Part shown: positions 94 to 24,838 of the stretch, one piece after another | Numbering within the stretch: the stretch's first letter is position 1 | How the letters are laid out: the number at the start of each line of letters is the position of its first letter | Origin: a virus | DNA length: 34,986 bases | IMG/VR virus record: IMGVR_UViG_3300001765_000193 | Strand: one strand, 5' to 3' | Notes under the pieces: generated by a model | Databases searched by the model: none | The model's input: only the letters and a program-made list of their open reading frames with translations | Told to the model about the DNA's origin: nothing | Position numbers and translations under genes: made by a program

Positions 94-2263
94 TTATTTC
101 TATTTGAGAAAGTAAAATATCGCCTGTTGTGTTTTCCGCTACATTAAATATAACGTTTGTATCTGTTGTAAATGGACCATCATTTATTCCTTCGTAATCA
201 GTTATGAAACTATCATTACTACCTATAAAAATAGTCGCTTCTATATCCTGTGCCTCAGATGTTAAATTGTAATTAGTTCTTAATGCAAATGGCTGTTCAA
301 TAGATCTGAAATCTGTTATCAATTCCATTGATACTTCGCCATTTGTTAAGTTGGAAGTGAAATTATTAAATATATATTTTTTGTCCTTATAAATTATTCT
401 GTCATTCAATTTCAAACCCGATAACATTGTGGTTGGTATCTTTGTTTTTAAATTAATCAACCTGCATCTTATGTCATACAAACCACTTATATAATTCTTA
501 TACCATAACTCAAATAAGCTATTTGAGGCTAAAGAAGTTGGTACGTTTACACTTTGCTCTTCGCCCCAATTAAGTGATGCAATTGTAGTACCTACTGCCA
601 ATTCATTTGTAAACTTTCTGTAATTTGAAACATTGTTATAACTCGCTCCGTTAAAGAATTTTATAGGCGTTGGAAGTGTAACATGATTATTCATATACAT
701 TAAAATCGGTTTCGGTTTATATGAATTTCGGTCTTTATCTATTAAAGTTGCTGTTAAAAAATCTTGGTTTGTTGTTTTTTCCCACATCACATCTTCAAAA
801 GGACTTTTAATTTCATAACTCGAACTCTCGTTACTCATTAAATCCTGATAATCTAGGTCGCCATACTCCCTGTTAAACGTATTTCTAAAAGCATTATTTA
901 AAATATTCTCGCTTTTTTCGTGTGCAAAAGATAGCTTTTTGAATAATTTAGGGCGTAAAATATCAATGTTATCTGTAATTACATAGGGTGTTATGTCTTT
1001 AAACTCTCCAAAACCATAAAAAAGCTCCAATGGTTGCAACTCAAAATTGTTTTCGCCTTTTGGTACTATCGTTAAATTGAATAGTTTTATAATTCCTGTA
1101 AAGAAATCAATTACTTTTATTTTTGGAATGTAAGATTGAATGTTTAAAAAGCTACCCGTTGATTGTGTGGTTGAGTAGCCTCTGCGTACTCGAGTTGAAA
1201 AATAGAATTGTTTTTTATTATATAATTCACTCGTAAAACTAAAAGGTGCAGTACTTTCAACTTCAAAATAATAAGACATTGCAGTACCGTTTGGTTGGTT
1301 TATAAATGAAATTTCTTGATAACCAAAGTTATTTTCAAAAGTATTTAAAACACTTCCGTTACTATTATTTCTTATCGTTACTTTATATTGAATAGCTGGA
1401 TTTGTAGGGAATATTTTAATAGAAGTTCGTTGATAAATTATACTACTTACACTCCAATCAGAAGTATAAACATCAGTAGTTAAATCCAAGTCGGGGAAGT
1501 TTACATCTTTAGAAGTAAAATTAATTCTAACGGGTGCTGTATAAACAACCAACTCTTCACTACTTTTACAATACAAATATAAATCTGTAAAGTAACCTGT
1601 ATTTAAAAAGAAACCCTCAAACGTTATTCCGTATCTATTGCTAATAAAATCAAATATTTTAGATATAGGAATAGCCGGGAATAAATCTGAATACACTATT
1701 GAACTCGCTGTAGTGCCTCCTATTGTAACATCATTCGCACTCCCTGTTAAATATTCATACCTTGCTTTTGCTCCTACAATTGGATAGCGTACATCTGATA
1801 ATATAGAACCATCAACTCTACCTACTATATTTGCATAATCGTATGTATGGTTTAAACTCGAATAATCTAAAACTGATAACTCTTCTTCTTTGAATAAGTC
1901 TTTTAACTGCTTTGTATTGCCATAAAAAGTAATCGTAAAACTTTCCATTTCATTCATTTTCTCATTCGCTTTCTCGATTTGAATTTTACCATCACGAAAA
2001 GGAATAGTATCTAATTCAATCTTTGCATCGAATCTTATTCGATGGTCGAACGCATCGTTAACAATTCCATTCTCATTCCAATAGTTGAAAATAATATTAT
2101 TGTTTGCACTTGCAGGAATAGTAAAAGATTGACTAAAATCTGTAAATACTTTTGATAGGTCATTAATGTTTTGAATAGAAGAGTTAACCGAAATTGTTTC
2201 GTCTTTGAATAAATCAATTCTTTTAAATTCATTGTTAATCTTAATGTATATTTCTACACTCAT
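32..2263 (-). CDS. Large tail/baseplate (probable host-recognition) structural protein, 743 aa
   Basis: Long ORF in the late block. Its start overlaps the upstream gene stop (2260-2263) and its stop overlaps the next start (TAATG). Function is inferred from size and position only. Confidence 0.4.
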   Translation of the reverse strand: MSVEIYIKINNEFKRIDLFKDETISVNSSIQNINDLSKVFTDFSQSFTIPASANNNIIFNYWNENGIVNDAFDHRIRFDAKIELDTIPFRDGKIQIEKANEKMNEMESFTITFYGNTKQLKDLFKEEELSVLDYSSLNHTYDYANIVGRVDGSILSDVRYPIVGAKARYEYLTGSANDVTIGGTTASSIVYSDLFPAIPISKIFDFISNRYGITFEGFFLNTGYFTDLYLYCKSSEELVVYTAPVRINFTSKDVNFPDLDLTTDVYTSDWSVSSIIYQRTSIKIFPTNPAIQYKVTIRNNSNGSVLNTFENNFGYQEISFINQPNGTAMSYYFEVESTAPFSFTSELYNKKQFYFSTRVRRGYSTTQSTGSFLNIQSYIPKIKVIDFFTGIIKLFNLTIVPKGENNFELQPLELFYGFGEFKDITPYVITDNIDILRPKLFKKLSFAHEKSENILNNAFRNTFNREYGDLDYQDLMSNESSSYEIKSPFEDVMWEKTTNQDFLTATLIDKDRNSYKPKPILMYMNNHVTLPTPIKFFNGASYNNVSNYRKFTNELAVGTTIASLNWGEEQSVNVPTSLASNSLFELWYKNYISGLYDIRCRLINLKTKIPTTMLSGLKLNDRIIYKDKKYIFNNFTSNLTNGEVSMELITDFRSIEQPFALRTNYNLTSEAQDIEATIFIGSNDSFITDYEGINDGPFTTDTNVIFNVAENTTGDILLSQIEITYFNNAKPTATKYINIIQEA

Positions 2264-3285: not shown

Positions 3286-3815
3286 AATTTCTCTAATAAT
3301 TTTTCTAAATCCAATCCGTAAGCATCAATAACTTCGTCTGGTAACTTCTTAAATCCCTGTTCAAATGGTTTGCTAAAAAAGAAACTTGATTTTATTCCTT
3401 TTTGATATATACTTCGAGTTATTAAAAAAGCGGTGTTTTCATAACTCATAAATTTTCCACTTTCTCTGTCCCGAAATTGAAAACGCCTTGCCTTAACCCA
3501 TTCTAATATTCCACTTGTTAAACCGCCTTTTTTACCCGTGCCACTTCCAAACCTAAACGGACTATTCGGTGCTTTAGCCGAGCTACTTTTACCCTTAACA
3601 CCTTTGTCTTGAAACTCGCCGTACTCTTCCATTTCAAAGTAAATCCCTATCGAGTTTTTACCTACAAAACTCTCGCCTTTTATGGAATCATAAAGTTTCT
3701 TTTTTACATTTTTGTCTTTTTTAGTCAAGTTGCTTTTAGCCTGTTGAACGACAAACTTCGTAAACTTTGAAAGTACTTTGTTTAAATTATCTTTAGCATC
3801 CATTACAACAAACAT
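3282..3815 (-). CDS. Putative head-tail joining/neck protein (HK97 gp10-like), 177 aa
   Basis: The YFEMEEYGEFQDKGVKG segment resembles the gp10-family core. Lies in the structural block. Confidence 0.35.
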   Translation of the reverse strand: MFVVMDAKDNLNKVLSKFTKFVVQQAKSNLTKKDKNVKKKLYDSIKGESFVGKNSIGIYFEMEEYGEFQDKGVKGKSSSAKAPNSPFRFGSGTGKKGGLTSGILEWVKARRFQFRDRESGKFMSYENTAFLITRSIYQKGIKSSFFFSKPFEQGFKKLPDEVIDAYGLDLEKLLEKL

Positions 3816-9196: not shown

Positions 9197-9204
9197 CAAA
9201 AATA
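9197..9204 (-). promoter_or_regulatory. Bacteroidota-type -7 box TATTTTTG
   Basis: Plus strand reads caaaaata, with a TTG about 20 nt upstream on the minus strand. Lies about 27 nt upstream of the ATG at 9170. Confidence 0.45.
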
Positions 9205-9865: not shown

Positions 9866-9909
9866 AATGTAATTTTTAATTTATTGTTTTTTAGTTAGTT
9901 AACCCAAAA

Positions 9910-10104
9910 ATGACAAATGACAAAATATTTTTTACAGAGTTTAAATATAAATCATATATTTCATTTTATGTATAAATAATAAATAATGTAATACTATATA
10001 TAGTTTAAACCATATATTTTATGTCATTTTGTAATTTATAGGTTTATATATTTAAAAATCAAATAATTAACCAATGACAAAATCAATGACAAAGAATGAC
10101 AAAA
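9910..10104. repeat. Iteron cluster (ATGACAAA) flanking an extremely AT-rich core; putative replication origin
   Basis: Direct copies at 9910, 9917, 10074, 10086 and 10096, and an inverted copy at 10021-10030. Lies in the 250-bp ORF-free gap just after the primase-helicase gene. No TAnnTTTG box is present. Confidence 0.45.
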
Positions 10105-10116
10105 ATTACATTTTTA

Positions 10117-12279: not shown

Positions 12280-13921
12280 AATATTGTTTTAATTTTTCTT
12301 TAAGTTTTGATTTTAAATAAACTAAAGTTCTATTGCTTTTACTTGGCAAACCATTGAAAATTTTAATAAATGGTTCTCCTAAGATACGATTAATTTTTTT
12401 GTCAAATTGTCCGTTTAAAATGGATTTTTGATAGCTTCCAAAAGTAACTTTATTTTTTACAAATAAATCAAAAGTTTGATTAATTAATATTTTAAAAGCA
12501 AAATTAATATCCTCGTTTATTGATTGAACATACTTTATAATCTTTTCGCCACTTGGGTATATTTGTTTAACTTTAACTGCTGTTATTTTATTTGTAACTA
12601 TTTCAACTTCCTTTTCTTCAACTTCAATTATAGGTTCTTCATAATTACAACTTGGACAATTTTTTTCAGATTTCATTTTTAAAAAACCACAATTTTTGCA
12701 CTCATTAATATCGTCCAAACTTTCTTTTAATTGTTTTGGAGGTTTTAATCCGTTAAAAAATATCTTTTCCCAATTCCTTGTTTTGTCAGACCACATTCCT
12801 AAGCGGTCTGAATTTCCGCCACCATCTATAAAAATAAATTTATCTTTAAATATCTTTTTAGTAGATCTTGCACCTCGTCCAGCAATTTGTATAAATAATG
12901 ATAATGATGCGGTGGGTCGTGCCATAATAATAGCTTCTACATCGTCAACGTCAAACCCTTTAGTGAAACAAGAAACGTTTAATAGTATTGCATCACGTTC
13001 ATTTTCAAACCAACGTATCAAAGGTTTTCTTTCGTTTTTTTGGTTGTTAACAGAATCATACATTTTTACGTTGTAGCCTTTCTCTTTAAACATTTCATAA
13101 ATCAAAAGATTAACTTTAGTTGATGCTGTGAAAATCATTGTTTTTTTACCTAAACAAAGCTGTTCGTAATTATGTAAAATATCAATTTGCACTTCTTCTT
13201 TTTCGTATGTTTGAGCAATTGATTCGGCTGTAAATTCTCCACTACTATCGGTTTTTAAATTTTCGGTATTTACTGAAATTGAATATAATTCTTCATCAAC
13301 TAAAAAATCATTCTCGATTAAATAATCAATTCCAACTCCTACTACAATATCATCATATACATCGGACATCGTTTCTTCTTTAGTCCAAACTTTCAATTCA
13401 TAACCGCAGTGTTCAACTTTTTCAAGTTCTGGAACGAATGGTAACTCGGTATTACATTCATTGCATTTATAAAATTTAGTTCTTTTTAGTCTAACTGGGG
13501 TTGCTGTGAAACCTATTATTTTGCAATCAATAACGTAATCAAAAATTTTGTTAAAAATCCAAACGTGTGCCTCATCGATTATAAGATAATTAAAGCGTTC
13601 GATTAAATTAGTTTTTTTTTGCAACCTATTGAATAAAGTTTGAGCCATCGAAACCACTACTTTATTATTCGGGAATATTTTATTTTTGCTTTCAAAAGTA
13701 GCTACATCAACTCCTTGTTTTAAAAAAGTTTTATAAGTTTGAGTAACCAAGTCTTCACTATCCACTAAAATTAAAACATCGGTATTTAGTTGTTTTGTTA
13801 ATTCGGTAAAAATAACGGTTTTTCCTCCGCCTGTTGATAATTGAACGCATAATTTATTTACGCTTGGTAGCTTAAATAATATTTGTTCAAGTTGATTTTG
13901 TTGATATGTCCTTAATTGCAT
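12263..13921 (-). CDS. SF2 DEAD/DEAH-box DNA helicase with Zn-ribbon inserts, 552 aa
   Basis: Motif I LSTGGGKT, motif II IIDEAH, motif III FTATP and motif VI QIAGRGAR. CxxC pairs at CNECN...HCG and CKNCG...CPSCN. Confidence 0.85.
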   Translation of the reverse strand: MQLRTYQQNQLEQILFKLPSVNKLCVQLSTGGGKTVIFTELTKQLNTDVLILVDSEDLVTQTYKTFLKQGVDVATFESKNKIFPNNKVVVSMAQTLFNRLQKKTNLIERFNYLIIDEAHVWIFNKIFDYVIDCKIIGFTATPVRLKRTKFYKCNECNTELPFVPELEKVEHCGYELKVWTKEETMSDVYDDIVVGVGIDYLIENDFLVDEELYSISVNTENLKTDSSGEFTAESIAQTYEKEEVQIDILHNYEQLCLGKKTMIFTASTKVNLLIYEMFKEKGYNVKMYDSVNNQKNERKPLIRWFENERDAILLNVSCFTKGFDVDDVEAIIMARPTASLSLFIQIAGRGARSTKKIFKDKFIFIDGGGNSDRLGMWSDKTRNWEKIFFNGLKPPKQLKESLDDINECKNCGFLKMKSEKNCPSCNYEEPIIEVEEKEVEIVTNKITAVKVKQIYPSGEKIIKYVQSINEDINFAFKILINQTFDLFVKNKVTFGSYQKSILNGQFDKKINRILGEPFIKIFNGLPSKSNRTLVYLKSKLKEKLKQYYDKIQ

Positions 13922-13933
13922 AATTAAATAAAA

Positions 13934-14031
13934 GAGAAAACCCTCGAACTCGATGCACTACTATCGGTTGAGGGTTTCTCATTTACATTGCTATTGCAAC
14001 GTTATAATTTAAGTCGGTAGTGCTTCGACTT
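13934..14031 (-). ncRNA. Structured 5' leader A: short hairpin plus long bipartite hairpin with complementary loops
   Basis: Long hairpin 13934-13980 has about 18 bp with 3 bulges and the 8-nt loop gcactact. Short hairpin 14011-14031 has a 6-bp stem and a 9-nt loop. Loops pair 13955-13961 (gcactac) with 14017-14023 (gtagtgc). Confidence 0.55.
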
Positions 14032-14033
14032 CA

Positions 14034-14041
14034 CAAAACTA
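14034..14041 (-). promoter_or_regulatory. Bacteroidota-type -7 box TAGTTTTG
   Basis: Plus strand reads caaaacta, with a TTTG 18 nt upstream on the minus strand. The leader hairpin starts 3 nt downstream. Confidence 0.5.
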
Positions 14042-14042
14042 C

Positions 14043-14075
14043 AAAAAAAATCCGAACTACAAAGCAATTCGGATT
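14043..14075 (-). terminator. Rho-independent terminator after the recombination operon
   Basis: Stem AUCCGAA/UUCGGAU followed by U8 on the minus strand. Confidence 0.7.
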
Positions 14076-14083
14076 AATTTTTT

Positions 14084-14359
14084 TTAATTAATTTTCTCTA
14101 TTTTCCAGCCTTTTATTGAGTTAAAATATTTTGTTTCGCCCTGTGGATTAACCCACTCTCGACCTCCTACATTAATTGAAACTTTAACATCATCACCAAT
14201 ATTATAAAAATCTAATAAAGCGGTTTTATCTTGAGCAAATTCAATTATTATTGTTTGTATATATTGTTCATTAGTTGCTATAACTAATTCTCTCTTTTTG
14301 TATGATGCACTTACTTCTTGAACATCACTAATTACTTTAATTTTACCGATTAATTCCAT
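14084..14359 (-). CDS. DUF3127-family OB-fold (SSB-like) protein, 91 aa
   Basis: MELIGKIKVISDVQEV...ELVIATNEQY...FAQDK...GDDVKVSINVGGREW...NSIKGWKIEK matches the DUF3127 pattern common in Bacteroidota. Confidence 0.7.
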   Translation of the reverse strand: MELIGKIKVISDVQEVSASYKKRELVIATNEQYIQTIIIEFAQDKTALLDFYNIGDDVKVSINVGGREWVNPQGETKYFNSIKGWKIEKIN

Positions 14360-14967
14360 TGTTTATTTTTGTTTATTAAGTTAATATATTCTAATTTAAT
14401 TTCTATTACTTCTTTTAAACGTTCTTTAATTTTTTCAATCATTTCTTCATCACGTTCAACTATAATTTCGTGATAATATTCTGTGCCATTGTGAACTAAA
14501 TAATTAAAAAAATAGGCTTTATCTCTATTTGTGCATAACATTTGCATTTGCATTTGTGCATAATATTTAGTGTCGATTTCATTTGTAGCAACCAATTTAA
14601 AAAAAGTAGTTGACTTCGGACATTTAATTTCTAAAATTGCATTATCAGAAACCAATCCGTCAGGACTTGCTCCAGCGTGTTCTTGGAATGTAAAAAAACC
14701 ACATTTTTCAACTTCTAAAAATTCCAATCCTTTTAATTCTTTAAACTTTGCAAAAGCTAAGGGTTCTGTATCAATTCCGGTTTGCATATCATAAGAAATA
14801 TAACTCTCTTCAAATTCTCCGTATAATTGTTCAATAGCTTTTTCAATAGCATAAGTTTTGCCAGTTTCACCAAGTCCACGAACTCCAAGTATTTTAATAA
14901 TTTCACTTGCAGTAAATTTACCGCACCTATCTTTTAACCAACTTTCTGTTCGTTGTAATTGTTCCAT
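14350..14967 (-). CDS. YqaJ-like (lambda Exo-type) recombination exonuclease, 205 aa
   Basis: QRTESWLKDRCGKFTASEI N-terminal signature plus the SPDG...LEIKCP PD-(D/E)xK core. Confidence 0.8.
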   Translation of the reverse strand: MEQLQRTESWLKDRCGKFTASEIIKILGVRGLGETGKTYAIEKAIEQLYGEFEESYISYDMQTGIDTEPLAFAKFKELKGLEFLEVEKCGFFTFQEHAGASPDGLVSDNAILEIKCPKSTTFFKLVATNEIDTKYYAQMQMQMLCTNRDKAYFFNYLVHNGTEYYHEIIVERDEEMIEKIKERLKEVIEIKLEYINLINKNKQWN

Positions 14968-15464
14968 AGTTTTTCAATTTCAGGTGTTAATGTATATTTC
15001 ATTTTAATTTGTTCAATTGTTGCATTGGCTTTTTTTGCACTCTCAAAATTAGCTTCTGTAAAGTTTGGTTTTACTTTATTTAAAATTGGTTGTATTGGTT
15101 TGATACGAACTCCGTCTGTAATTGCTCCCATCATTTTTACATTTCTATCAACATACAATTCAATATTCATGCCCTTCCAATTTTCTATAATATGACATTC
15201 TTTACCTATTAATCCGTCTTTTTTTGCAAACCCAGCCAATATTTTATTATTAGTTGAATTTAGTTTTAATGGTTTAATAGGTTCTACAAAATAGCAAAAA
15301 ATGCCGTCTTGTTTAGTTCCTGAAACATCAACTCCTTGTTCATACTTTACTTCTTTAATAGTAAAAATTAAAGGCACTCCGTCTGTTTCCATAGCATCTA
15401 AATCAGCACTCGCAAGGTGTGTAGATTTTCGATACTTTCTCCAATCTGTTTTTTTATTTTCCAT
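14934..15464 (-). CDS. Hypothetical protein, 176 aa; first gene of the recombination operon
   Basis: Minus-strand ORF that overlaps the exonuclease gene. No motif I can name. An annealing or SSB role is a guess from position only. Confidence 0.3.
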   Translation of the reverse strand: MENKKTDWRKYRKSTHLASADLDAMETDGVPLIFTIKEVKYEQGVDVSGTKQDGIFCYFVEPIKPLKLNSTNNKILAGFAKKDGLIGKECHIIENWKGMNIELYVDRNVKMMGAITDGVRIKPIQPILNKVKPNFTEANFESAKKANATIEQIKMKYTLTPEIEKLWNNYNEQKVG

Positions 15465-15478
15465 ATTTTAAAAAATAA

Positions 15479-15560
15479 ACCTCTTTTAAGAAACTTAATC
15501 GGCTAGAATTAAGCGTTAAAAGAGGTGTTATAAATTTGTGAAAGTCCCTAGCCGAACTTT
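15479..15560 (-). ncRNA. Structured 5' leader B (same architecture as A)
   Basis: Long hairpin 15479-15526 has an 11-bp outer stem, a 6-bp inner stem and the 8-nt loop cggctaga. Short hairpin 15541-15560 has a 5-bp stem and a 10-nt loop. Loops pair 15500-15506 (cggctag) with 15548-15554 (ctagccg). Confidence 0.55.
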
Positions 15561-15568
15561 TTGATATG

Positions 15569-15576
15569 CAAATATA
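15569..15576 (-). promoter_or_regulatory. Bacteroidota-type -7 box TATATTTG
   Basis: Plus strand reads caaatata. The leader hairpin begins 7-8 nt downstream. Confidence 0.45.
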
Positions 15577-15587
15577 ACTAAATTAAA

Positions 15588-15752
15588 TTAATAAAATACA
15601 TTTTTTTTAATTATTTCTGTATTATATTTTTCAAAGCATTGTTTAGGTTTCAGTCTTGCCCAAAACATTTCAAATATAAATATTTGTTTTCCTGTTCTTT
15701 TGCAGTGGAATGTATATCCACTTACTTCTCTTTTAAATTCTCTGTATTTCAT
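15588..15752 (-). CDS. Hypothetical small protein, 54 aa (below cutoff)
   Basis: Hand translation MKYREFKREVSGYTFHCKRTGKQ...KKNVFY. The ATG lies 1 nt after the methyltransferase stop. Confidence 0.45.
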   Translation of the reverse strand: MKYREFKREVSGYTFHCKRTGKQIFIFEMFWARLKPKQCFEKYNTEIIKKNVFY

Positions 15753-15753
15753 T

Positions 15754-16404
15754 TTAAAAAAGTTTTGTTTGTGAAATATGATTTTTTACTCTTTGTATTC
15801 CTTTGTCGTAGTATTCCTTGTCAAGTTCACAGCCAACCAATTCAAATCCATAATCGTGGCACGCTATTGCAATACTCATCGACCCTAAATGCGTATCGAG
15901 TATTTTATCGCCTTGCTTGGCGTATTTATTTAGAATAAACTTATATAAGTCAATTGGTTTTTCAGTTGGATGTATTCTATCACTTCCGTTATTTGCATTA
16001 GCACCAACCCAAGATTTAAAAAATTTTCTTATAGAACCATTAAAAGAAGTCCACGCTAATTCTCCATCAGCATAAGAATTATCTCCAGTACCTTTATCCC
16101 AAAATAACCAACATTGAGAATTTTCTAATAAATTAGAAAAATAATTTCCACCCCAAATAATTTGATTTTTTGATATTCTTTGTAATTCTTTAAAATAATC
16201 TTTAGATGGAATTGATTTATCCCAATCATTTTCTCTAAAATCTATAGTTTTAATTTTGGAAGTTCCGTTTTTAAAGTTTTTACTTCCAGCACCAATCCCA
16301 TAAGGCGGGTCAACAATAGCCAACTCGAAATAATTATCAGGATAACGTGCCATTAGTTGCATATTGCATTCGTTTGTCAATTCTATTTTATCTGTTAGTT
16401 TCAT
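15754..16404 (-). CDS. N6/N4 DNA methyltransferase (N6_N4_Mtase family), 216 aa
   Basis: Motif IV IVDPPYGIG, then HPTEKPIDLY, then motif I-like DTHLGSMS. Paralog of 20698-21417. Confidence 0.8.
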   Translation of the reverse strand: MKLTDKIELTNECNMQLMARYPDNYFELAIVDPPYGIGAGSKNFKNGTSKIKTIDFRENDWDKSIPSKDYFKELQRISKNQIIWGGNYFSNLLENSQCWLFWDKGTGDNSYADGELAWTSFNGSIRKFFKSWVGANANNGSDRIHPTEKPIDLYKFILNKYAKQGDKILDTHLGSMSIAIACHDYGFELVGCELDKEYYDKGIQRVKNHISQTKLF

Positions 16405-16406
16405 AA

Positions 16407-17249
16407 TTAGAATAGTGTTTCTTGACTTTTATTAATTAATGTTTTAGCAAATCCAAATTCTTCTATATCTTTTAATTTTTGATACTCTTCATTTATCCAA
16501 TTTTCGGCATTTTTATGAAATGGTTTTTTAATTTCAAACCCAAAACATTTTCTTTTTAATTCTTGCCCGGCTATTAAAGTTGAGCCACTACCCGCGCAAG
16601 GGTCTATAATTACGTCTCCTTCATCCGTAAAAATTTCAATTAGTTTTTTCAAAACTTTTAATGGTTTTTGAGTAGGGTGCAATTTTTCAATATTTGCATC
16701 ATCACGTTCCCAATCCAAGCAATTAAAAATCATTTTACCTTTGTTATTAAATTTTGGCAAACGATCACGATAAAATATTAAAGCATATTCGCAGTTACCT
16801 ACTACTTTCATATTTGCTTTTAAAACTTGTGCCGAAAAGTTTTTACGAAATACTAAATTTATATAATTTTTCAATCCGTATCTTTTAGCTAATTCAATTA
16901 AATACATTTGTTGGTCGAATGCACAAAAAACAATCATACAAGGTGCATCGCCTTTTTGTCTTGGTTCTCCATCTTCTGACTTTTTTGGTTTAGTTTCTGC
17001 TTTTAGCATTGTGCTACAAAAGTGCATAAATTCTGCTGGTCTAAAATCTTCATCGGTATCAAAGAAACTTTTACCAGCTAATTCACTTTCTCCATTTGCA
17101 TTGTCTCCGTCTTTATACCACGCTGGGTTTGATGCGTATGCGTTGTTTCCTAAATTATAAGGAATATCCGCAATTATTAATTGTGCTTTCGGAATCGCAT
17201 ATGTTTTGAAATTCTGAAAATGGTTATTAAATATTTGTGCTTTTTTCAT
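16407..17249 (-). CDS. N6/N4 DNA methyltransferase (beta-class order), 280 aa
   Basis: Motif IV variant IADIPYNLG, HPTQKPLKVLKKLIE, motif I DPCAGSGST. Confidence 0.8.
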   Translation of the reverse strand: MKKAQIFNNHFQNFKTYAIPKAQLIIADIPYNLGNNAYASNPAWYKDGDNANGESELAGKSFFDTDEDFRPAEFMHFCSTMLKAETKPKKSEDGEPRQKGDAPCMIVFCAFDQQMYLIELAKRYGLKNYINLVFRKNFSAQVLKANMKVVGNCEYALIFYRDRLPKFNNKGKMIFNCLDWERDDANIEKLHPTQKPLKVLKKLIEIFTDEGDVIIDPCAGSGSTLIAGQELKRKCFGFEIKKPFHKNAENWINEEYQKLKDIEEFGFAKTLINKSQETLF

Positions 17250-17270
17250 AAATATTTTTAAAATTTAAAA

Positions 17271-17344
17271 CCCGATTAAAGCAAAGTAAGGCATTTGCTA
17301 AAATCGGGGATTATTAATGTTTTATTAGACCGCCTTACTTGTCT
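17271..17344 (-). ncRNA. Structured 5' leader C (same architecture as A and B)
   Basis: Long hairpin 17271-17308 has a 7-bp outer stem, a 6-bp inner stem and the 8-nt loop gtaaggca. Short hairpin 17327-17344 has a 4-bp stem and a 10-nt loop. Loops pair 17286-17292 (gtaaggc) with 17332-17338 (gccttac). Confidence 0.55.
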
Positions 17345-17348
17345 GTTG

Positions 17349-17375
17349 CAAAGATATAAAAATTATTTTAATTAA
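17349..17375 (-). promoter_or_regulatory. -7 box TATCTTTG plus one upstream TTAATTAAAATAAtT unit
   Basis: Plus strand reads caaagata at 17349-17356. A 15-nt unit at 17361-17375, 4 nt from the box, matches 14/15 nt of the tandem units at 19981-20014 and 24377-24410. Confidence 0.5.
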
Positions 17376-17387
17376 AACAATTTTTTT

Positions 17388-17621
17388 TTAAAATATTATT
17401 TTAACTAAAAACAAACCTACAATTGCACCGCAACCAGCTCCGAGAGCATAGGTTAATTTTTGATTAGTAGTTGAAACGCTGATTTTTGATACATTAAACG
17501 CCCACAGCAACGAAATTGTAAACGATGCTATAAATATACCAATCCAATTTAATTGAGTGATAAAATACGTGTTTATAGCAACCATTCCGATTTGTATAAA
17601 CGATGTTAGAAATGTTTTCAT
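17388..17621 (-). CDS. Small integral membrane protein (3 predicted TM), 77 aa
   Basis: Almost entirely hydrophobic: IQIGMVAINTYFI, IGIFIASFTISLLWAF, ALGAGCGAIVGLFLVKIIF. Confidence 0.55.
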   Translation of the reverse strand: MKTFLTSFIQIGMVAINTYFITQLNWIGIFIASFTISLLWAFNVSKISVSTTNQKLTYALGAGCGAIVGLFLVKIIF

Positions 17622-19968: not shown

Positions 19969-20014
19969 CAAATCTATAAAACTTATTTTAATTAAAAAAA
20001 CTTATTTTAATTAA
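19969..20014 (-). promoter_or_regulatory. Early promoter: -7 box TAGATTTG preceded by two tandem TTAATTAAAATAAGT units
   Basis: Plus strand reads caaatcta at 19969-19976. Units lie at 19981-19995 and 20000-20014. The 34-nt block is identical to 24377-24410 with the same 4-nt offset to the box. Confidence 0.55.
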
Positions 20015-24364: not shown

Positions 24365-24410
24365 CAAAAATAATAAACTTATTTTAATTAAAAAAACTTA
24401 TTTTAATTAA
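24365..24410 (-). promoter_or_regulatory. Early promoter: -7 box TATTTTTG preceded by two tandem TTAATTAAAATAAGT units
   Basis: Plus strand reads caaaaata at 24365-24372. Units lie at 24377-24391 and 24396-24410 and are identical to 19981-20014. Confidence 0.55.
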
Positions 24411-24466: not shown

Positions 24467-24780
24467 AAATAACTTTACAGAATTTACACTGCATCTCGAC
24501 TTTAGAAGGGTCGTATTTTAAACTTAAACTAAAAGTTATAAGATTTCGTTCTTTTAAACGGAATTACACAGCCATTCTTAATGTTGCATTATTCAAATTA
24601 ATAACGTTGTCGGTTATTTTTTTTTAGCTCTCGATATTACTTACTTATCTATTGTCAAAGCCAAGCACCCCCAAAATATTCCGAATGTTCGGACACTTAT
24701 CAAACATAAACGTTTTGCGTTGTGGAGGTGGTGGGAGTCGAACCCACGTCCAAATAGATTTCATTAATACGTCAACGAAC
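24441..24780 (-). ncRNA. ssrA: Circularly permuted (two-piece) tmRNA-like RNA: acceptor piece then coding piece
   Basis: 24759->24723 reads AUCUAUU-UGGAC-GUGGG-UUCGACU-CCCAC-CACCUCC-A. 24672->24647 reads GGGGGUG-CUUGGCUUUGAC-AAUAGAU. The acceptor stem pairs fully with G3:U70, the P2 strands are exact complements, and there is no ORF in the unit. Confidence 0.6.
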
Positions 24781-24785
24781 TTTTA

Positions 24786-24801
24786 CAAAGATACAAAAAT
24801 A
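24786..24801 (-). promoter_or_regulatory. Two adjacent -7 boxes TATTTTTG-TATCTTTG driving the tmRNA-like unit
   Basis: Plus strand reads caaagata at 24786-24793 and caaaaata at 24794-24801, just downstream of the lysis-operon terminator. Confidence 0.45.
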
Positions 24802-24810
24802 TTTTTTAAA

Positions 24811-24838
24811 TAAAAAACCACCCTTTTGAGAGTGGTTT
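24811..24838 (-). terminator. Rho-independent terminator after the lysis cassette
   Basis: Stem AAACCAC/GUGGUUU (24815-24838) followed by a U run on the minus strand. Confidence 0.55.

Follow-up and report, generated by a model that had tools for sequence, protein, structure and literature searches.

Three virus operons start with a two-hairpin leader RNA that may be a new kind of transcription gate for DNA-replication genes

Three operons in a stretch of DNA from a Flavobacterium-type phage (IMG/VR record IMGVR_UViG_3300001765_000193) start with a leader RNA that carries two hairpins with complementary loops. The function we consider most likely, although it has no more than an even chance of being right, is that of a new kind of transcription gate for DNA-replication genes. 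The anatomy of the leaders, the covariation of all their helices including the loop-loop contact (the kiss), their placement between promoter and start codon and their terminator-like features were established by computation. In the following, the window is the whole stretch of DNA that was analyzed, 34,986 nucleotides. All leader features lie on its minus strand, and the leaders as wholes, read from the sequence, span positions 13922-14041 (leader A), 15465-15576 (leader B) and 17250-17356 (leader C). Each element sits 5-25 nt 5' of the first open reading frame (ORF) of an operon, and the genes downstream are always genes of DNA metabolism: helicase/primase for leader A, phrog_21613, a YqaJ exonuclease and a DUF3127 SSB for leader B, and two DNA methyltransferases for leader C. 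Homing-endonuclease genes are often inserted beside leaders, and an iteron-rich putative origin, separate from the leaders, is found at 9866-10116.

The two-hairpin layout that a sequence-only reading had claimed for three minus-strand regions is present in all three leaders. In leader A, a -7 box of the sigma-A type (TAGTTTTG, 14034-14041; predicted +1 at about 14029) is followed by the 5'-terminal hairpin HP1 (14011-14031), with the stem AAGTCG/CGACTT and the loop AAGCACTAC. The spacer holds a small middle hairpin (CGTTGCAATAGCAATG, 13985-14002), which covaries in L011 and L027, and leads to the bipartite, terminator-like hairpin HP2 (13934-13980), with the inner stem CGAT/ATCG, the loop AGTAGTGC and a predicted energy of -19.9 kcal/mol. 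The U/A-rich tail UUUUAUUUAAUU (13922-13933) lies between HP2 and the helicase ATG (13919-13921). Leader B has its -7 box (TATATTTG) at 15569-15576, a predicted +1 at about 15564, HP1 at 15541-15560 (stem AAAGT/ACTTT, loop TCGGCTAGGG) and HP2 at 15480-15525 (outer stem CCTCTTTTAA/TTAAAAGAGG, inner stem CTTAAT/ATTAAG, loop TCTAGCCG, -15.9 kcal/mol); the U-run UUUAUUUUUUAAAAU (15465-15479) precedes its ATG (15462-15464). In leader C, the -7 box (TATCTTTG, 17349-17356) gives a predicted +1 at 17344, the first base of HP1 (17327-17344; stem AGAC/GTCT, loop AAGTAAGGCG), and HP2 (17271-17308; outer stem CCCGATT/AATCGGG, inner stem AGCAAA/TTTGCT, loop TGCCTTAC, -16.5 kcal/mol) is followed by a U-run starting with UUUUAAAUUUU (17250-17270) and the ATG (17247-17249). 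The region of leader C was also recovered by covariance model R1 (E = 0.014). RNAfold recovers HP2 in all three leaders and HP1 in A and B, with folding Z-scores of -5.0, -4.2 and -2.2 for A, B and C.

In each leader, 7 nt of the HP1 loop are exactly complementary to 7 nt of the HP2 loop, and both stretches fall within their loops, just as the sequence-only reading had it: GCACTAC (14017-14023) and GTAGTGC (13955-13961) in A, CGGCTAG (15548-15554) and CTAGCCG (15500-15506) in B, and GTAAGGC (17332-17338) and GCCTTAC (17286-17292) in C. No CopA/CopT-like pairing past the loops was found in leader A, where the complementarity ends at the loop borders. Two descriptions in that reading need qualification. 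The leaders had been called unrelated in sequence, which does not hold entirely, since each of them belongs to a larger homologous leader type, and their designation as GC-rich islands is true only in a modest sense, with 35-41% GC in the leaders vs 29.5% in the window.

A chance origin of the loop pattern is excluded by a scan of the window, by loop permutations and by two non-circular tests. The stringent scan of the whole window on both strands returned exactly three elements, leaders A, B and C, against a mean of 0.15 elements in 20 dinucleotide shuffles of the window, and permutation of the loop letters with the composition of each loop kept gave P = 0.001-0.003 per leader; the claim that chance does not explain the pattern is borne out by both figures. 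Applied to 80 related viral loci, the same scan found 41 sense-strand matches vs 6 in shuffled copies (both strands). A looser scan for hairpin pairs, which allowed 4-bp stems with G-U and any 7-mer, was swamped by chance matches in this genome of 70% A+T and was replaced by the stringent scan and the non-circular tests. In the first of these tests, candidates with a promoter and two hairpins were picked blind to loop sequence, and a complement of at least 7 nt was found in 14% of cognate but only 0.54% of non-cognate loop pairs. In the second, 68% of the regions 5' of helicase homologs (n = 77) contained such a complementary loop pair, compared with 2.3% of shuffles and 1.7% of intra-ORF windows. 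The non-circular enrichment of loop complementarity is about 26-fold for the hairpin candidates and 30-fold for the helicase-upstream regions.

The loop-loop pairing also covaries. A covariance model built without this pairing collected 24 leaders, 20 of them distinct, in which all 140 cells of the loop-loop helix are Watson-Crick and six of the seven loop-loop pairs vary on both sides, in line with the proposal that covariation maintains a kissing loop or pseudoknot at the level of RNA. In the same set, the whole structure is 94% paired vs 66% in shuffles (none of 500 reached as high a value), and slid controls are 36-50% paired. The figure of 100% for the loops is partly ascertained, because part of the set had first been found by a scan that required perfect complementarity; the fair tests are therefore the two non-circular ones, on loop-blind candidates and on helicase-upstream regions. 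Individual changes can be followed in related phages, where leaders of the A type carry the loop pairs GCACTAC/GTAGTGC, GCATCAC/GTGATGC and CCATCAC/GTGATGG, with three compensatory positions among leader A orthologs, and where leaders of type 2 carry the loops GTGAGAAG, GTGAGACG and GTGGAACG, each with a matching partner. Loss of the complementarity in homologous leaders had been named beforehand as an outcome that would refute the idea; instead, the loops of these leaders change yet stay complementary. As far as can be judged from sequence comparison, dozens of related phages retain the loop pairing via compensatory mutations.

The contiguous Watson-Crick stretch between the loops, 7 nt in the window leaders and 7-10 nt in relatives, exceeds the 6 nt that we had set as a minimum. 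Loop L1 comprises 1-2 unpaired nucleotides on its 5' side, 7-8 paired ones and then 0-1, and loop L2 follows a pattern of 1 + 7 + 0 or 0 + 8 + 5, a geometry from which we infer, on the basis of general pseudoknot and kissing stereochemistry, that a stacked loop-loop helix could be accommodated. The structure including the loop-loop pairing is thus well supported by comparative evidence, and the physical formation of the kiss is inferred.

The stems contain 21 G-U vs 7 A-C combinations. An excess of G-U over A-C by 3:1 points to the sense-strand RNA rather than to DNA or the opposite strand, and the orientation of the leader matches that of the gene in every case. A DNA-level signal, for instance a cruciform or single-stranded structure with a role in replication, recombination or homing, could explain why the elements are found within the replication and recombination module and often adjoin homing-endonuclease genes, but it would leave the G-U excess without meaning. 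Nor would it account for the constant position and orientation of the elements with respect to promoter and start codon, and the putative origin at 9866-10116 is a separate, iteron-rich locus. We regard this explanation, even taken together with chance, as barely credible.

The architecture recurs in relatives. About 80 uncultured ones display >20 distinct loop codes between them, and 46 records of Muminvirus, cultured Baltic Flavobacterium siphophages whose hosts Flavobacterium sp. LMO6 and LMO9 are in culture as well, contain one leader type at 83-89% identity, without an annotation in any of these records. A megablast of a 6-kb region against phage records gave no match, and relatives were reached via the helicase protein instead of by nucleotide search. 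A scan of bacterial genomes returned only six close relatives, all of them Flavobacterium or Bacteroidota MAG contigs, with the leader present in 5/5 for which the upstream region was read. No such architecture was seen upstream of helicase homologs of other phyla, and the element is absent from a more distant relative, Cellulophaga phage phi46:1. A few copies are without a clean -7 box (L012 3316, L006 7 and L021). The earlier statement that no described family has this layout holds for Rfam 15 and for the literature, including the Muminvirus paper, in which we found nothing like these leaders. With Rfam 15, the window matched no family at gathering score, the leaders of five related loci gave nothing at E up to 1, and the region 13700-17600 gave no sense-strand overlap with the leaders at E up to 10. 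The sole overlap was a Thr_leader match on the opposite strand, covering leader A together with the terminator upstream of it, which reached 21 bits vs a cut-off of 55 and mainly reflects that terminator.

The loop codes of these relatives are many and distinct, the leaders inside one genome almost always differ, and leader cassettes have been exchanged between phages. All of this could be expected if the loops paired in trans. Leaders might join hand in hand into multimers like those of phi29 pRNA, or terminated leaders, which would persist as stable small RNAs, might target leaders still being transcribed from their own genome or from that of a co-infecting phage; in either case, specificity or incompatibility would be determined by the variable 7-nt code, as in ColE1 RNA I/II, P1/P7 c4 and P4 CI. 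The two partners are, however, only 40-65 nt apart on one transcript and joined by a flexible linker, so that pairing in cis should win. Furthermore, the L012 genome uses the same code twice, and each loop 7-mer is essentially confined to its own leader, with no trans targets of the codes found elsewhere in the window. A conserved antisense promoter was likewise not seen: a plus-strand TAnnTTTG is present in leader B only (15531-15538) and is, by eye, not conserved in A, C or the relatives. Taken together, we find pairing in trans very improbable as the main function.

The position of the hairpins bears on what the leader does in cis. In Flavobacterium psychrophilum, the -7 box occupies -12 to -5 (PMC9723704). 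In the leaders, HP1 mostly starts 4-7 nt past the TTTG, at about +1 to +4 and hence 0-3 nt from the predicted 5' end. At the other end, HP2 resembles a terminator. Its energy has a family mean of -13.5 kcal/mol and ranges from -15.9 to -19.9 kcal/mol in the window leaders, vs -11 to -13.5 kcal/mol for the window's own operon-end terminators, so that it is at least as stable as these and satisfies the criterion of a stable stem-loop with a GC-rich base. A U-run lies directly 3' of HP2 in nearly all members, with TTTTT in 12 of the 20 distinct members and 3-4 T in the first 5 nt of most others; in the window leaders, the tails right after HP2 are UUUUCUCUUUU, UUUAUUUUUU and UUUUAAAUUUU. Where genes of the same phage lack a leader, their 5' UTRs are rich in A, not in U. 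The U-rich sequence that the sequence-only reading had noticed after each long hairpin is thus a conserved U-run behind a hairpin of terminator-like energy. Its suggestion of an attenuator fits these observations, with termination itself inferred in the absence of transcript data. A simple terminator scan passes over HP2 only because it accepts nothing but continuous stems, and is therefore uninformative for this hairpin.

HP2 could alternatively serve as the terminator of the upstream operon, an idea weakened by the many leaders that have a separate one. Promoter A is directly abutted by the canonical terminator of the upstream (SSB) operon (14049-14075), so that transcription from upstream can be stopped without HP2 of leader A. 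Such a separate terminator abuts the promoter in 23/56 helicase leaders, which suggests that HP2 acts on transcripts of its own promoter.

At 37 C, the temperature for which folding energies were computed, HP1 contributes -1.5, the inner stem of HP2 -0.8 and the kiss duplex -9.3 kcal/mol, which makes the kiss the strongest apical interaction. The small stems are more stable at 15 C (-4.1 and -2.9 kcal/mol). The outer stem of HP2 is still stable on its own (mean -8.1 kcal/mol), and the kiss is therefore not thermodynamically required for HP2. Since the kiss and the full HP2 hairpin can coexist, and since no conserved alternative (antiterminator) pairing was seen, by inspection only, no classical switch is evident. 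A leader-peptide attenuator was also rejected, as leader B has no ATG before the gene start and the mini-ORFs of A and C are unrelated and not conserved.

We consider it about as likely as its opposite that the leader is a cis-acting, promoter-proximal attenuator, in which a terminator is locked by the kissing contact, and that it also caps the 5' end of the mRNA. The host would make a leader RNA of about 85-105 nt from a sigma-A-type promoter; transcription start at these promoters is itself inferred. HP1, as the first 16-20 nt, would form within ~0-3 nt of the 5' end and display its GC-rich loop, connected by an A/U-rich linker of ~15-30 nt to HP2, which together with its immediate U-run would be an intrinsic terminator by shape and energy, with the start codon 5-25 nt further on. 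On emergence, the 8-nt apical loop of HP2 would be captured in cis by the HP1 loop, giving a kissing helix of 7-10 Watson-Crick base pairs stacked between two weak 4-6-bp stems. This tertiary lock would organize the top of the terminator and thereby set the efficiency with which RNA polymerase stops at the U-run, so that the helicase/primase, recombination/SSB or DNA methylase operon would be expressed only through read-through. Read-through may rise if the kiss is late or absent, or if an early phage factor renders the polymerase resistant to termination. The sign of the effect, that is, whether the kiss raises or lowers termination, is inferred, and the effect could be small or opposite. In the read-through mRNA, the same fold would provide a base-paired 5' end and may slow 5'-end-dependent decay.

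This last point leads to an explanation without termination, namely that the leader is only a 5' stabilizer and folding insulator, whose compact base-paired 5' end keeps the leader off the A/U-rich translation start in a host without Shine-Dalgarno sequences, while the U-run is not a working terminator. Protection by 5'-terminal stem-loops, as in ompA-type stabilizers, requires a hairpin at the 5' end, and HP1 does start within ~0-3 nt of the predicted one; moreover, HP1 is so weak that the kiss would be what keeps the end shut, and the element always lies directly 5' of the start codon. On the other hand, one strong 5' hairpin would be simpler, and stabilization explains neither the U-run after the GC-rich base of HP2, in a phage whose other 5' UTRs are A-rich, nor the match in energy between HP2 and genuine terminators. 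We hold this explanation to be unlikely, but do not dismiss it.

Alternatively, the leader may be a platform for a factor that acts on the polymerase, in that the RNA itself binds and modifies the polymerase in the manner of HK022 put, or that a phage or host protein reads the shape of the kiss in a Rop-like manner, with read-through of HP2 and of downstream terminators as the result. The presence of several copies per genome, each right after an early or middle operon promoter, would be in keeping with this, and so would a structure that is conserved while its sequence is free. In addition, a non-canonical internal loop (UGAU/UGAU, tandem G-A) is conserved in many members and could serve as a binding site for a protein. 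Yet there is almost no universal nucleotide across leader types, which is hard to square with specific polymerase binding, and put has no built-in terminator. A candidate trans-factor was not recognized either: ~30 early or small ORFs were only ORFans or unknown PHROGs, and no antiterminator, NusG-like, Q-like or RNA-binding protein could be discerned among the early ORFs. Such a platform strikes us as rather improbable, and the assignment to an attenuator, a put-like element or a stabilizer is in any case an inference.

A further idea, which we offer tentatively and hold to be unlikely, goes beyond this. The leaders might constitute a new, sequence-programmable class of RNA switch, 'kiss-locked terminators', in which a freely evolvable address of 7-10 nt in the 5' hairpin decides whether the terminator fires. 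These units would be swapped as promoter-leader cassettes, the address would keep the switches of one genome orthogonal, and co-infecting relatives might even recognize it in trans, as an RNA signal of incompatibility or superinfection.

Bacteroidota rank among the dominant organisms of aquatic and gut ecosystems, and next to nothing is known about gene regulation in their phages. Throughout a whole group of Flavobacterium siphophages, the operons for replication, recombination and methylases begin with this element, which offers a testable handle on their temporal control; as the pairing code can be changed at will, experiments with mutant and compensatory loops should be easy. If the attenuator reading is true, the leaders would be one of the rare natural examples of an intrinsic terminator coupled to a tertiary contact between loops instead of to alternative secondary structures. 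They would also be an attractive, compact and orthogonal regulatory part for Bacteroidota, for which many standard genetic tools are lacking.

Several known RNAs share individual features with the leaders. Guanidine-II (mini-ykkC) riboswitches likewise consist of two small hairpins with kissing loops and a variable linker, but their loops have to bind the ligand and are therefore invariant (ACGR), whereas those of the leaders are free to vary as long as they stay complementary. Accordingly, with freely varying loop positions, >20 codes and no Rfam match, we rejected a kissing-hairpin riboswitch of this type. HK022 put is also a cis-acting, multi-copy RNA of two hairpins just 3' of early promoters, with structure prevailing over sequence; it has, however, no loop-loop pairing and no embedded terminator, and needs specific conserved bases for polymerase binding. 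The leaders do not satisfy the criteria for a put-type element: the two promoter-proximal hairpins are present, but no bases are conserved across leader types and a terminator-like hairpin is included.

The loop-loop helices themselves resemble those of plasmid antisense systems such as ColE1 RNA I/II, R1 CopA/CopT, pT181 and pIP501, which also feature GC-rich pairing over 6-8 nt, bulged or interrupted upper stems and covarying codes; in pT181 and pIP501, the outcome is a leader terminator, as proposed here. In these systems, the partner is a countertranscript from the opposite strand and the folds are mutually exclusive, whereas in the leaders both loops are on one transcript. In the repA/repZ pseudoknot of IncB and IncI-alpha plasmids, a hairpin close to the 5' end uses its loop to pair with a remote complementary stretch beside the translation start of a replication gene. 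There, 4-8 nt pair with a linear stretch, the pairing activates translation and is blocked by an antisense RNA, whereas here the partner is a terminator-like apical loop. Among phage RNAs, phi29 pRNA, P1/P7 c4 and P4 CI also have complementary pairs that covary between related phages, and the outcome of the P4 and P1 immunity RNAs is premature termination in the leader; yet their pairings are intermolecular or made via a processed small RNA and do not involve a 5'-terminal hairpin that docks on a terminator loop in cis.

In the arrangement of their parts, the leaders also resemble the late operon of lambdoid phages. In the unit PR' - 6S RNA - tR', transcription from a constitutive promoter runs through a short leader into an intrinsic terminator directly ahead of a gene block and is released by Q. 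Expression therefore depends on read-through, and the order of promoter, short leader and intrinsic terminator is the one proposed for the leaders here. In lambda, the switch is the DNA-loaded protein Q and the 6S leader has no kissing fold, whereas here it would be an RNA tertiary contact on the terminator loop.

A sequence-only reading had claimed that three minus-strand intergenic regions share one architecture, in which a -7 box is followed by a short hairpin (HP1), a long bipartite hairpin (HP2) and the start codon of an operon, and direct reading of the sequence agrees with it exactly. In leader A, which precedes the helicase/primase operon, the -7 box TAGTTTTG (14034-14041; all leader coordinates refer to the minus strand) is followed by HP1 with the loop AAGCACTAC (14011-14031), HP2 with the 8-nt apical loop AGTAGTGC (13934-13980) and the start codon at 13921; this leader has an additional small hairpin between HP1 and HP2, and its U/A-rich tail before the helicase ATG is 12 nt long. 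The corresponding elements are TATATTTG (15569-15576), HP1 with TCGGCTAGGG (15541-15560), HP2 with the 8-nt TCTAGCCG (15480-15525) and a start codon at 15464 in leader B, and TATCTTTG (17349-17356), HP1 with AAGTAAGGCG (17327-17344), HP2 with the 8-nt TGCCTTAC (17271-17308) and a start codon at 17249 in leader C. The 7-mers proposed to pair between the HP1 loop (L1) and the HP2 loop (L2), GCACTAC/GTAGTGC in A, CGGCTAG/CTAGCCG in B and GTAAGGC/GCCTTAC in C, are indeed exact complements, one per loop. RNAfold predicts all three long hairpins and the short hairpins of A and B, and the z-scores of A, B and C are -5.0, -4.2 and -2.2. The spacer of leader B also contains an opposite-strand -7-like box, TAAATTTG (15531-15538, plus strand), which could drive an antisense RNA with a copy of the L2 code; it is probably a chance occurrence and, judged by eye, is not kept in leaders A and C or in relatives.

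A scan for pairs of Watson-Crick hairpins, the second enclosed by an outer stem, whose loops are perfectly complementary over 7 nt or more with at least 3 G/C, found three elements in the 35-kb window, exactly leaders A, B and C, compared with an average of 0.15 in dinucleotide shuffles (n = 20). When the letters of one loop were permuted at constant composition, 0.1-0.3% of the trials for each leader yielded a 7-nt match. At the remaining promoters of the window (9197-9204, 19969-19976 and 24365-24372), the 5' UTRs are short (25-30 nt), rich in A and unstructured. In a rival reading, the loops pair in trans, between separate molecules; in the window searched, each loop 7-mer is essentially confined to its own leader.

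The window represents a nearly complete siphophage-like genome, whose genes for terminase, portal, replication and recombination share a single strand. Its helicase is 85-93% identical to relatives in seven IMG/VR contigs, and the closest cultured relatives are found in Muminvirus, a genus of Baltic Flavobacterium phages (43.5% identity). The helicase-operon leader of relatives is often wholly different in sequence, yet it is built in the same way, with complementary loops of its own. In 80 loci (728 kb in total), collected with a helicase alignment, the scan yielded 41 sense-strand elements with more than 20 loop codes, most of them directly preceded by TAnnTTTG, against 6 matches, both strands summed, in a shuffle control (one per locus). 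Inspection of the 230 nt ahead of every helicase gene revealed a leader before nearly every helicase operon that is preceded by an intergenic gap, including types absent from the matches of the strict scan.

Two tests of the loop pairing are unbiased, one based on shape and one on gene homology. For the former, 272 sites at which two hairpins follow a -7 box were picked blind to their loops: cognate loops are complementary over at least 7 nt in 14% of these sites, loops from different sites in 0.54%, and the distribution is bimodal. For the latter, 77 distinct regions ahead of helicase homologs were taken, and such a loop pair is present in 68% of them, compared with 2.3% of shuffles and 1.7% of intra-ORF windows. 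A covariance model built without the loop-loop pairs from 14 leaders, all belonging to one subtype, matched 24 leaders at E < 1e-4, including ten new ones, as well as leader C (E = 0.014); it was searched only against the sequences collected here, and this search does not delimit the host range. In the resulting alignment, all 140 cells of the loop-loop (kissing) helix are paired, with both-sided changes at six of its seven pairs (for example GC 10, CG 9 and AU 1 at one pair), but the figure of 100% is partly ascertained, because the seed sequences came from a scan demanding perfect pairing. The whole structure is 94% paired versus 66% in shuffles, none of which (0/500) equals it, and slid controls reach 36-50%. 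Compensatory changes are likewise seen among orthologs of the leader A type (GCACTAC/GTAGTGC, GCATCAC/GTGATGC, CCATCAC/GTGATGG), of type 2 (GTGAGAAG, GTGAGACG and GTGGAACG, each with a matching partner) and of the CGGGCAGG type.

In Flavobacterium psychrophilum, the sigma-A -7 box spans -12 to -5 (PMC9723704). HP1 mostly starts 4-7 nt past the TTTG, that is at a predicted +1 to +4, which would make it the 5'-terminal hairpin of the transcript. L1 opens at its 5' side with one or two unpaired nucleotides, mostly A, and continues with 7-8 pairing nucleotides that reach the closing pair, while L2 has one unpaired and then seven pairing nucleotides or, in one type, eight pairing and then five unpaired. 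According to nearest-neighbour estimates, which ignore tertiary structure, HP1 and the inner stem of HP2 are weak at 37 °C (-1.5 and -0.8 kcal/mol; -4.1 and -2.9 kcal/mol at 15 °C), and the 7-bp loop-loop duplex contributes about -9.3 kcal/mol. In many members, a conserved symmetric internal loop (UGAU/UGAU, tandem G-A) separates the inner stem from the outer one, and a linker of about 20 nt is composed of A and U only. The elements might in principle be a DNA-level signal; the stems, however, contain 21 G-U versus 7 A-C combinations, and this excess indicates that the structure is read as RNA on the sense strand.

HP2 resembles a terminator: it follows an A-rich stretch, its base is GC-rich, and a U-run comes immediately after it (TTTTT in 12 of 20 distinct members, three to four T in five for most others). 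Its predicted energy averages -13.5 kcal/mol and lies between -16 and -20 kcal/mol in the window copies, compared with -11.4 to -13.5 kcal/mol for the operon-end terminators of the window; without its top, the outer stem is still stable (-8.1 kcal/mol on average). The U-run is specific to the kissing-loop leaders, the 5' UTRs of other phage genes being A-rich. The start codon comes 5-25 nt further on, so that a terminated RNA would exclude it. In leader A, the upstream operon has its own canonical terminator, which adjoins the promoter; such a terminator is present at 23 of 56 helicase leaders, compared with 5 of 350 random windows. This arrangement suggests that HP2 would act on transcripts of its own promoter. 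In leader A, the hairpin of this upstream terminator (14049-14075, minus strand) carries the -33 TTTG of the promoter in its loop; terminator and promoter overlap almost completely, a compact arrangement that recurs in many relatives.

Judged from sequence, the data are best fitted by a cis-acting promoter-proximal attenuator. HP1 would form first, and L1 would capture the apical loop of the terminator hairpin as it emerges; the stacked kissing helix would organize the top of HP2 and thereby set the frequency at which the polymerase stops at the U-run, with the operon being expressed by read-through. Whether kissing promotes or reduces termination is not established; no alternative leader fold was seen on inspection. 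The same fold would leave a paired 5' end on the read-through mRNA, as would also be expected of a pure 5' stabilizer, a rival that has to be weighed against the terminator-like U-run. The leaders could instead be a platform for a polymerase-modifying factor, but no partner protein can be named among the early or small ORFs of the phage.

The related loci L001 and L010-L013, compared with L008 and L116, are mosaic: helicases that are about 90% identical have unrelated leader types, so that promoter and leader together behave as a cassette that can be exchanged. Conversely, one leader type occurs at 83-89% nucleotide identity in 46 cultured Muminvirus records, none of which has an annotation under it, although their helicase is only 43% identical or, as in one phage, a different replication module follows. 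Locus L012 carries the same leader twice (545-611 and 3316-3382), with the 10-nt code AAGTAGTGAG and different genes downstream; a clean TAnnTTTG is missing from its second copy and from the copy in L006 (7-74). The element is absent from a more distant Cellulophaga phage, and no such architecture was found at helicase homologs of other phyla. The first genes after the leaders encode helicase/primase, phrog_21613 / YqaJ exonuclease / DUF3127 SSB, DNA methyltransferases, RecT-like proteins or homing endonucleases inserted ahead of such genes; among the leaders examined, structural genes were never found directly behind one. The inserted GIY-YIG or HNH genes, located between leader and usual replication gene (L011 4390-4989, L027 459-1100, L068 3316-4023, L070 2441-3016, L008 13748-14227), appear to borrow the leader's expression signals. 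L027 additionally has a near-threshold Rfam DUF805b match (1679-1711, plus strand; 31.3 bits, cut-off 35.6, E = 4.8e-5), which is unrelated to the leaders.

Other elements of the window, all on the minus strand, deserve mention. The 17-mer TTAATTAAAATAAGTTT (8 matches, 1.3 expected) is arranged as tandem pairs immediately ahead of the -7 box at two leaderless promoters (19979-20014 and 24375-24410) and as a variant inverted pair upstream of promoter C (17359-17384); it resembles an operator or a UP-like element of early promoters. Between the primase and VRR-NUC genes lies a putative replication origin, a gap of 251 nt (9866-10116) in which five TTTGTCATT iterons flank a very A+T-rich core. 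A permuted, two-piece tmRNA gene (24473-24813; Rfam tmRNA_permuted, 61.6 bits, cut-off 47), unusual for a Flavobacterium-type phage, encodes the tag peptide DNVINLNNATLRMAV* according to ARAGORN, and Rfam also calls a tRNA-like piece at 24469-24538.

No Rfam model matches the leaders, and nothing of the kind was found in the literature searched or in the paper describing the cultured Muminvirus phages. Their defining feature, a kissing contact between a putative 5'-terminal hairpin and the apical loop of a terminator, appears to be undescribed, and we would rate them among the cis-regulatory leader or attenuator RNAs. In their logic, they are similar to the lambdoid PR'-6S-tR' units and to the put RNAs, in both of which a leader close to the promoter controls read-through; in their chemistry, with GC-rich covarying loop codes, they are similar to plasmid kissing-loop systems, which in pT181 and pIP501 include leader terminators. 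With no invariant bases and no countertranscript evident, they are a member of none of these systems.
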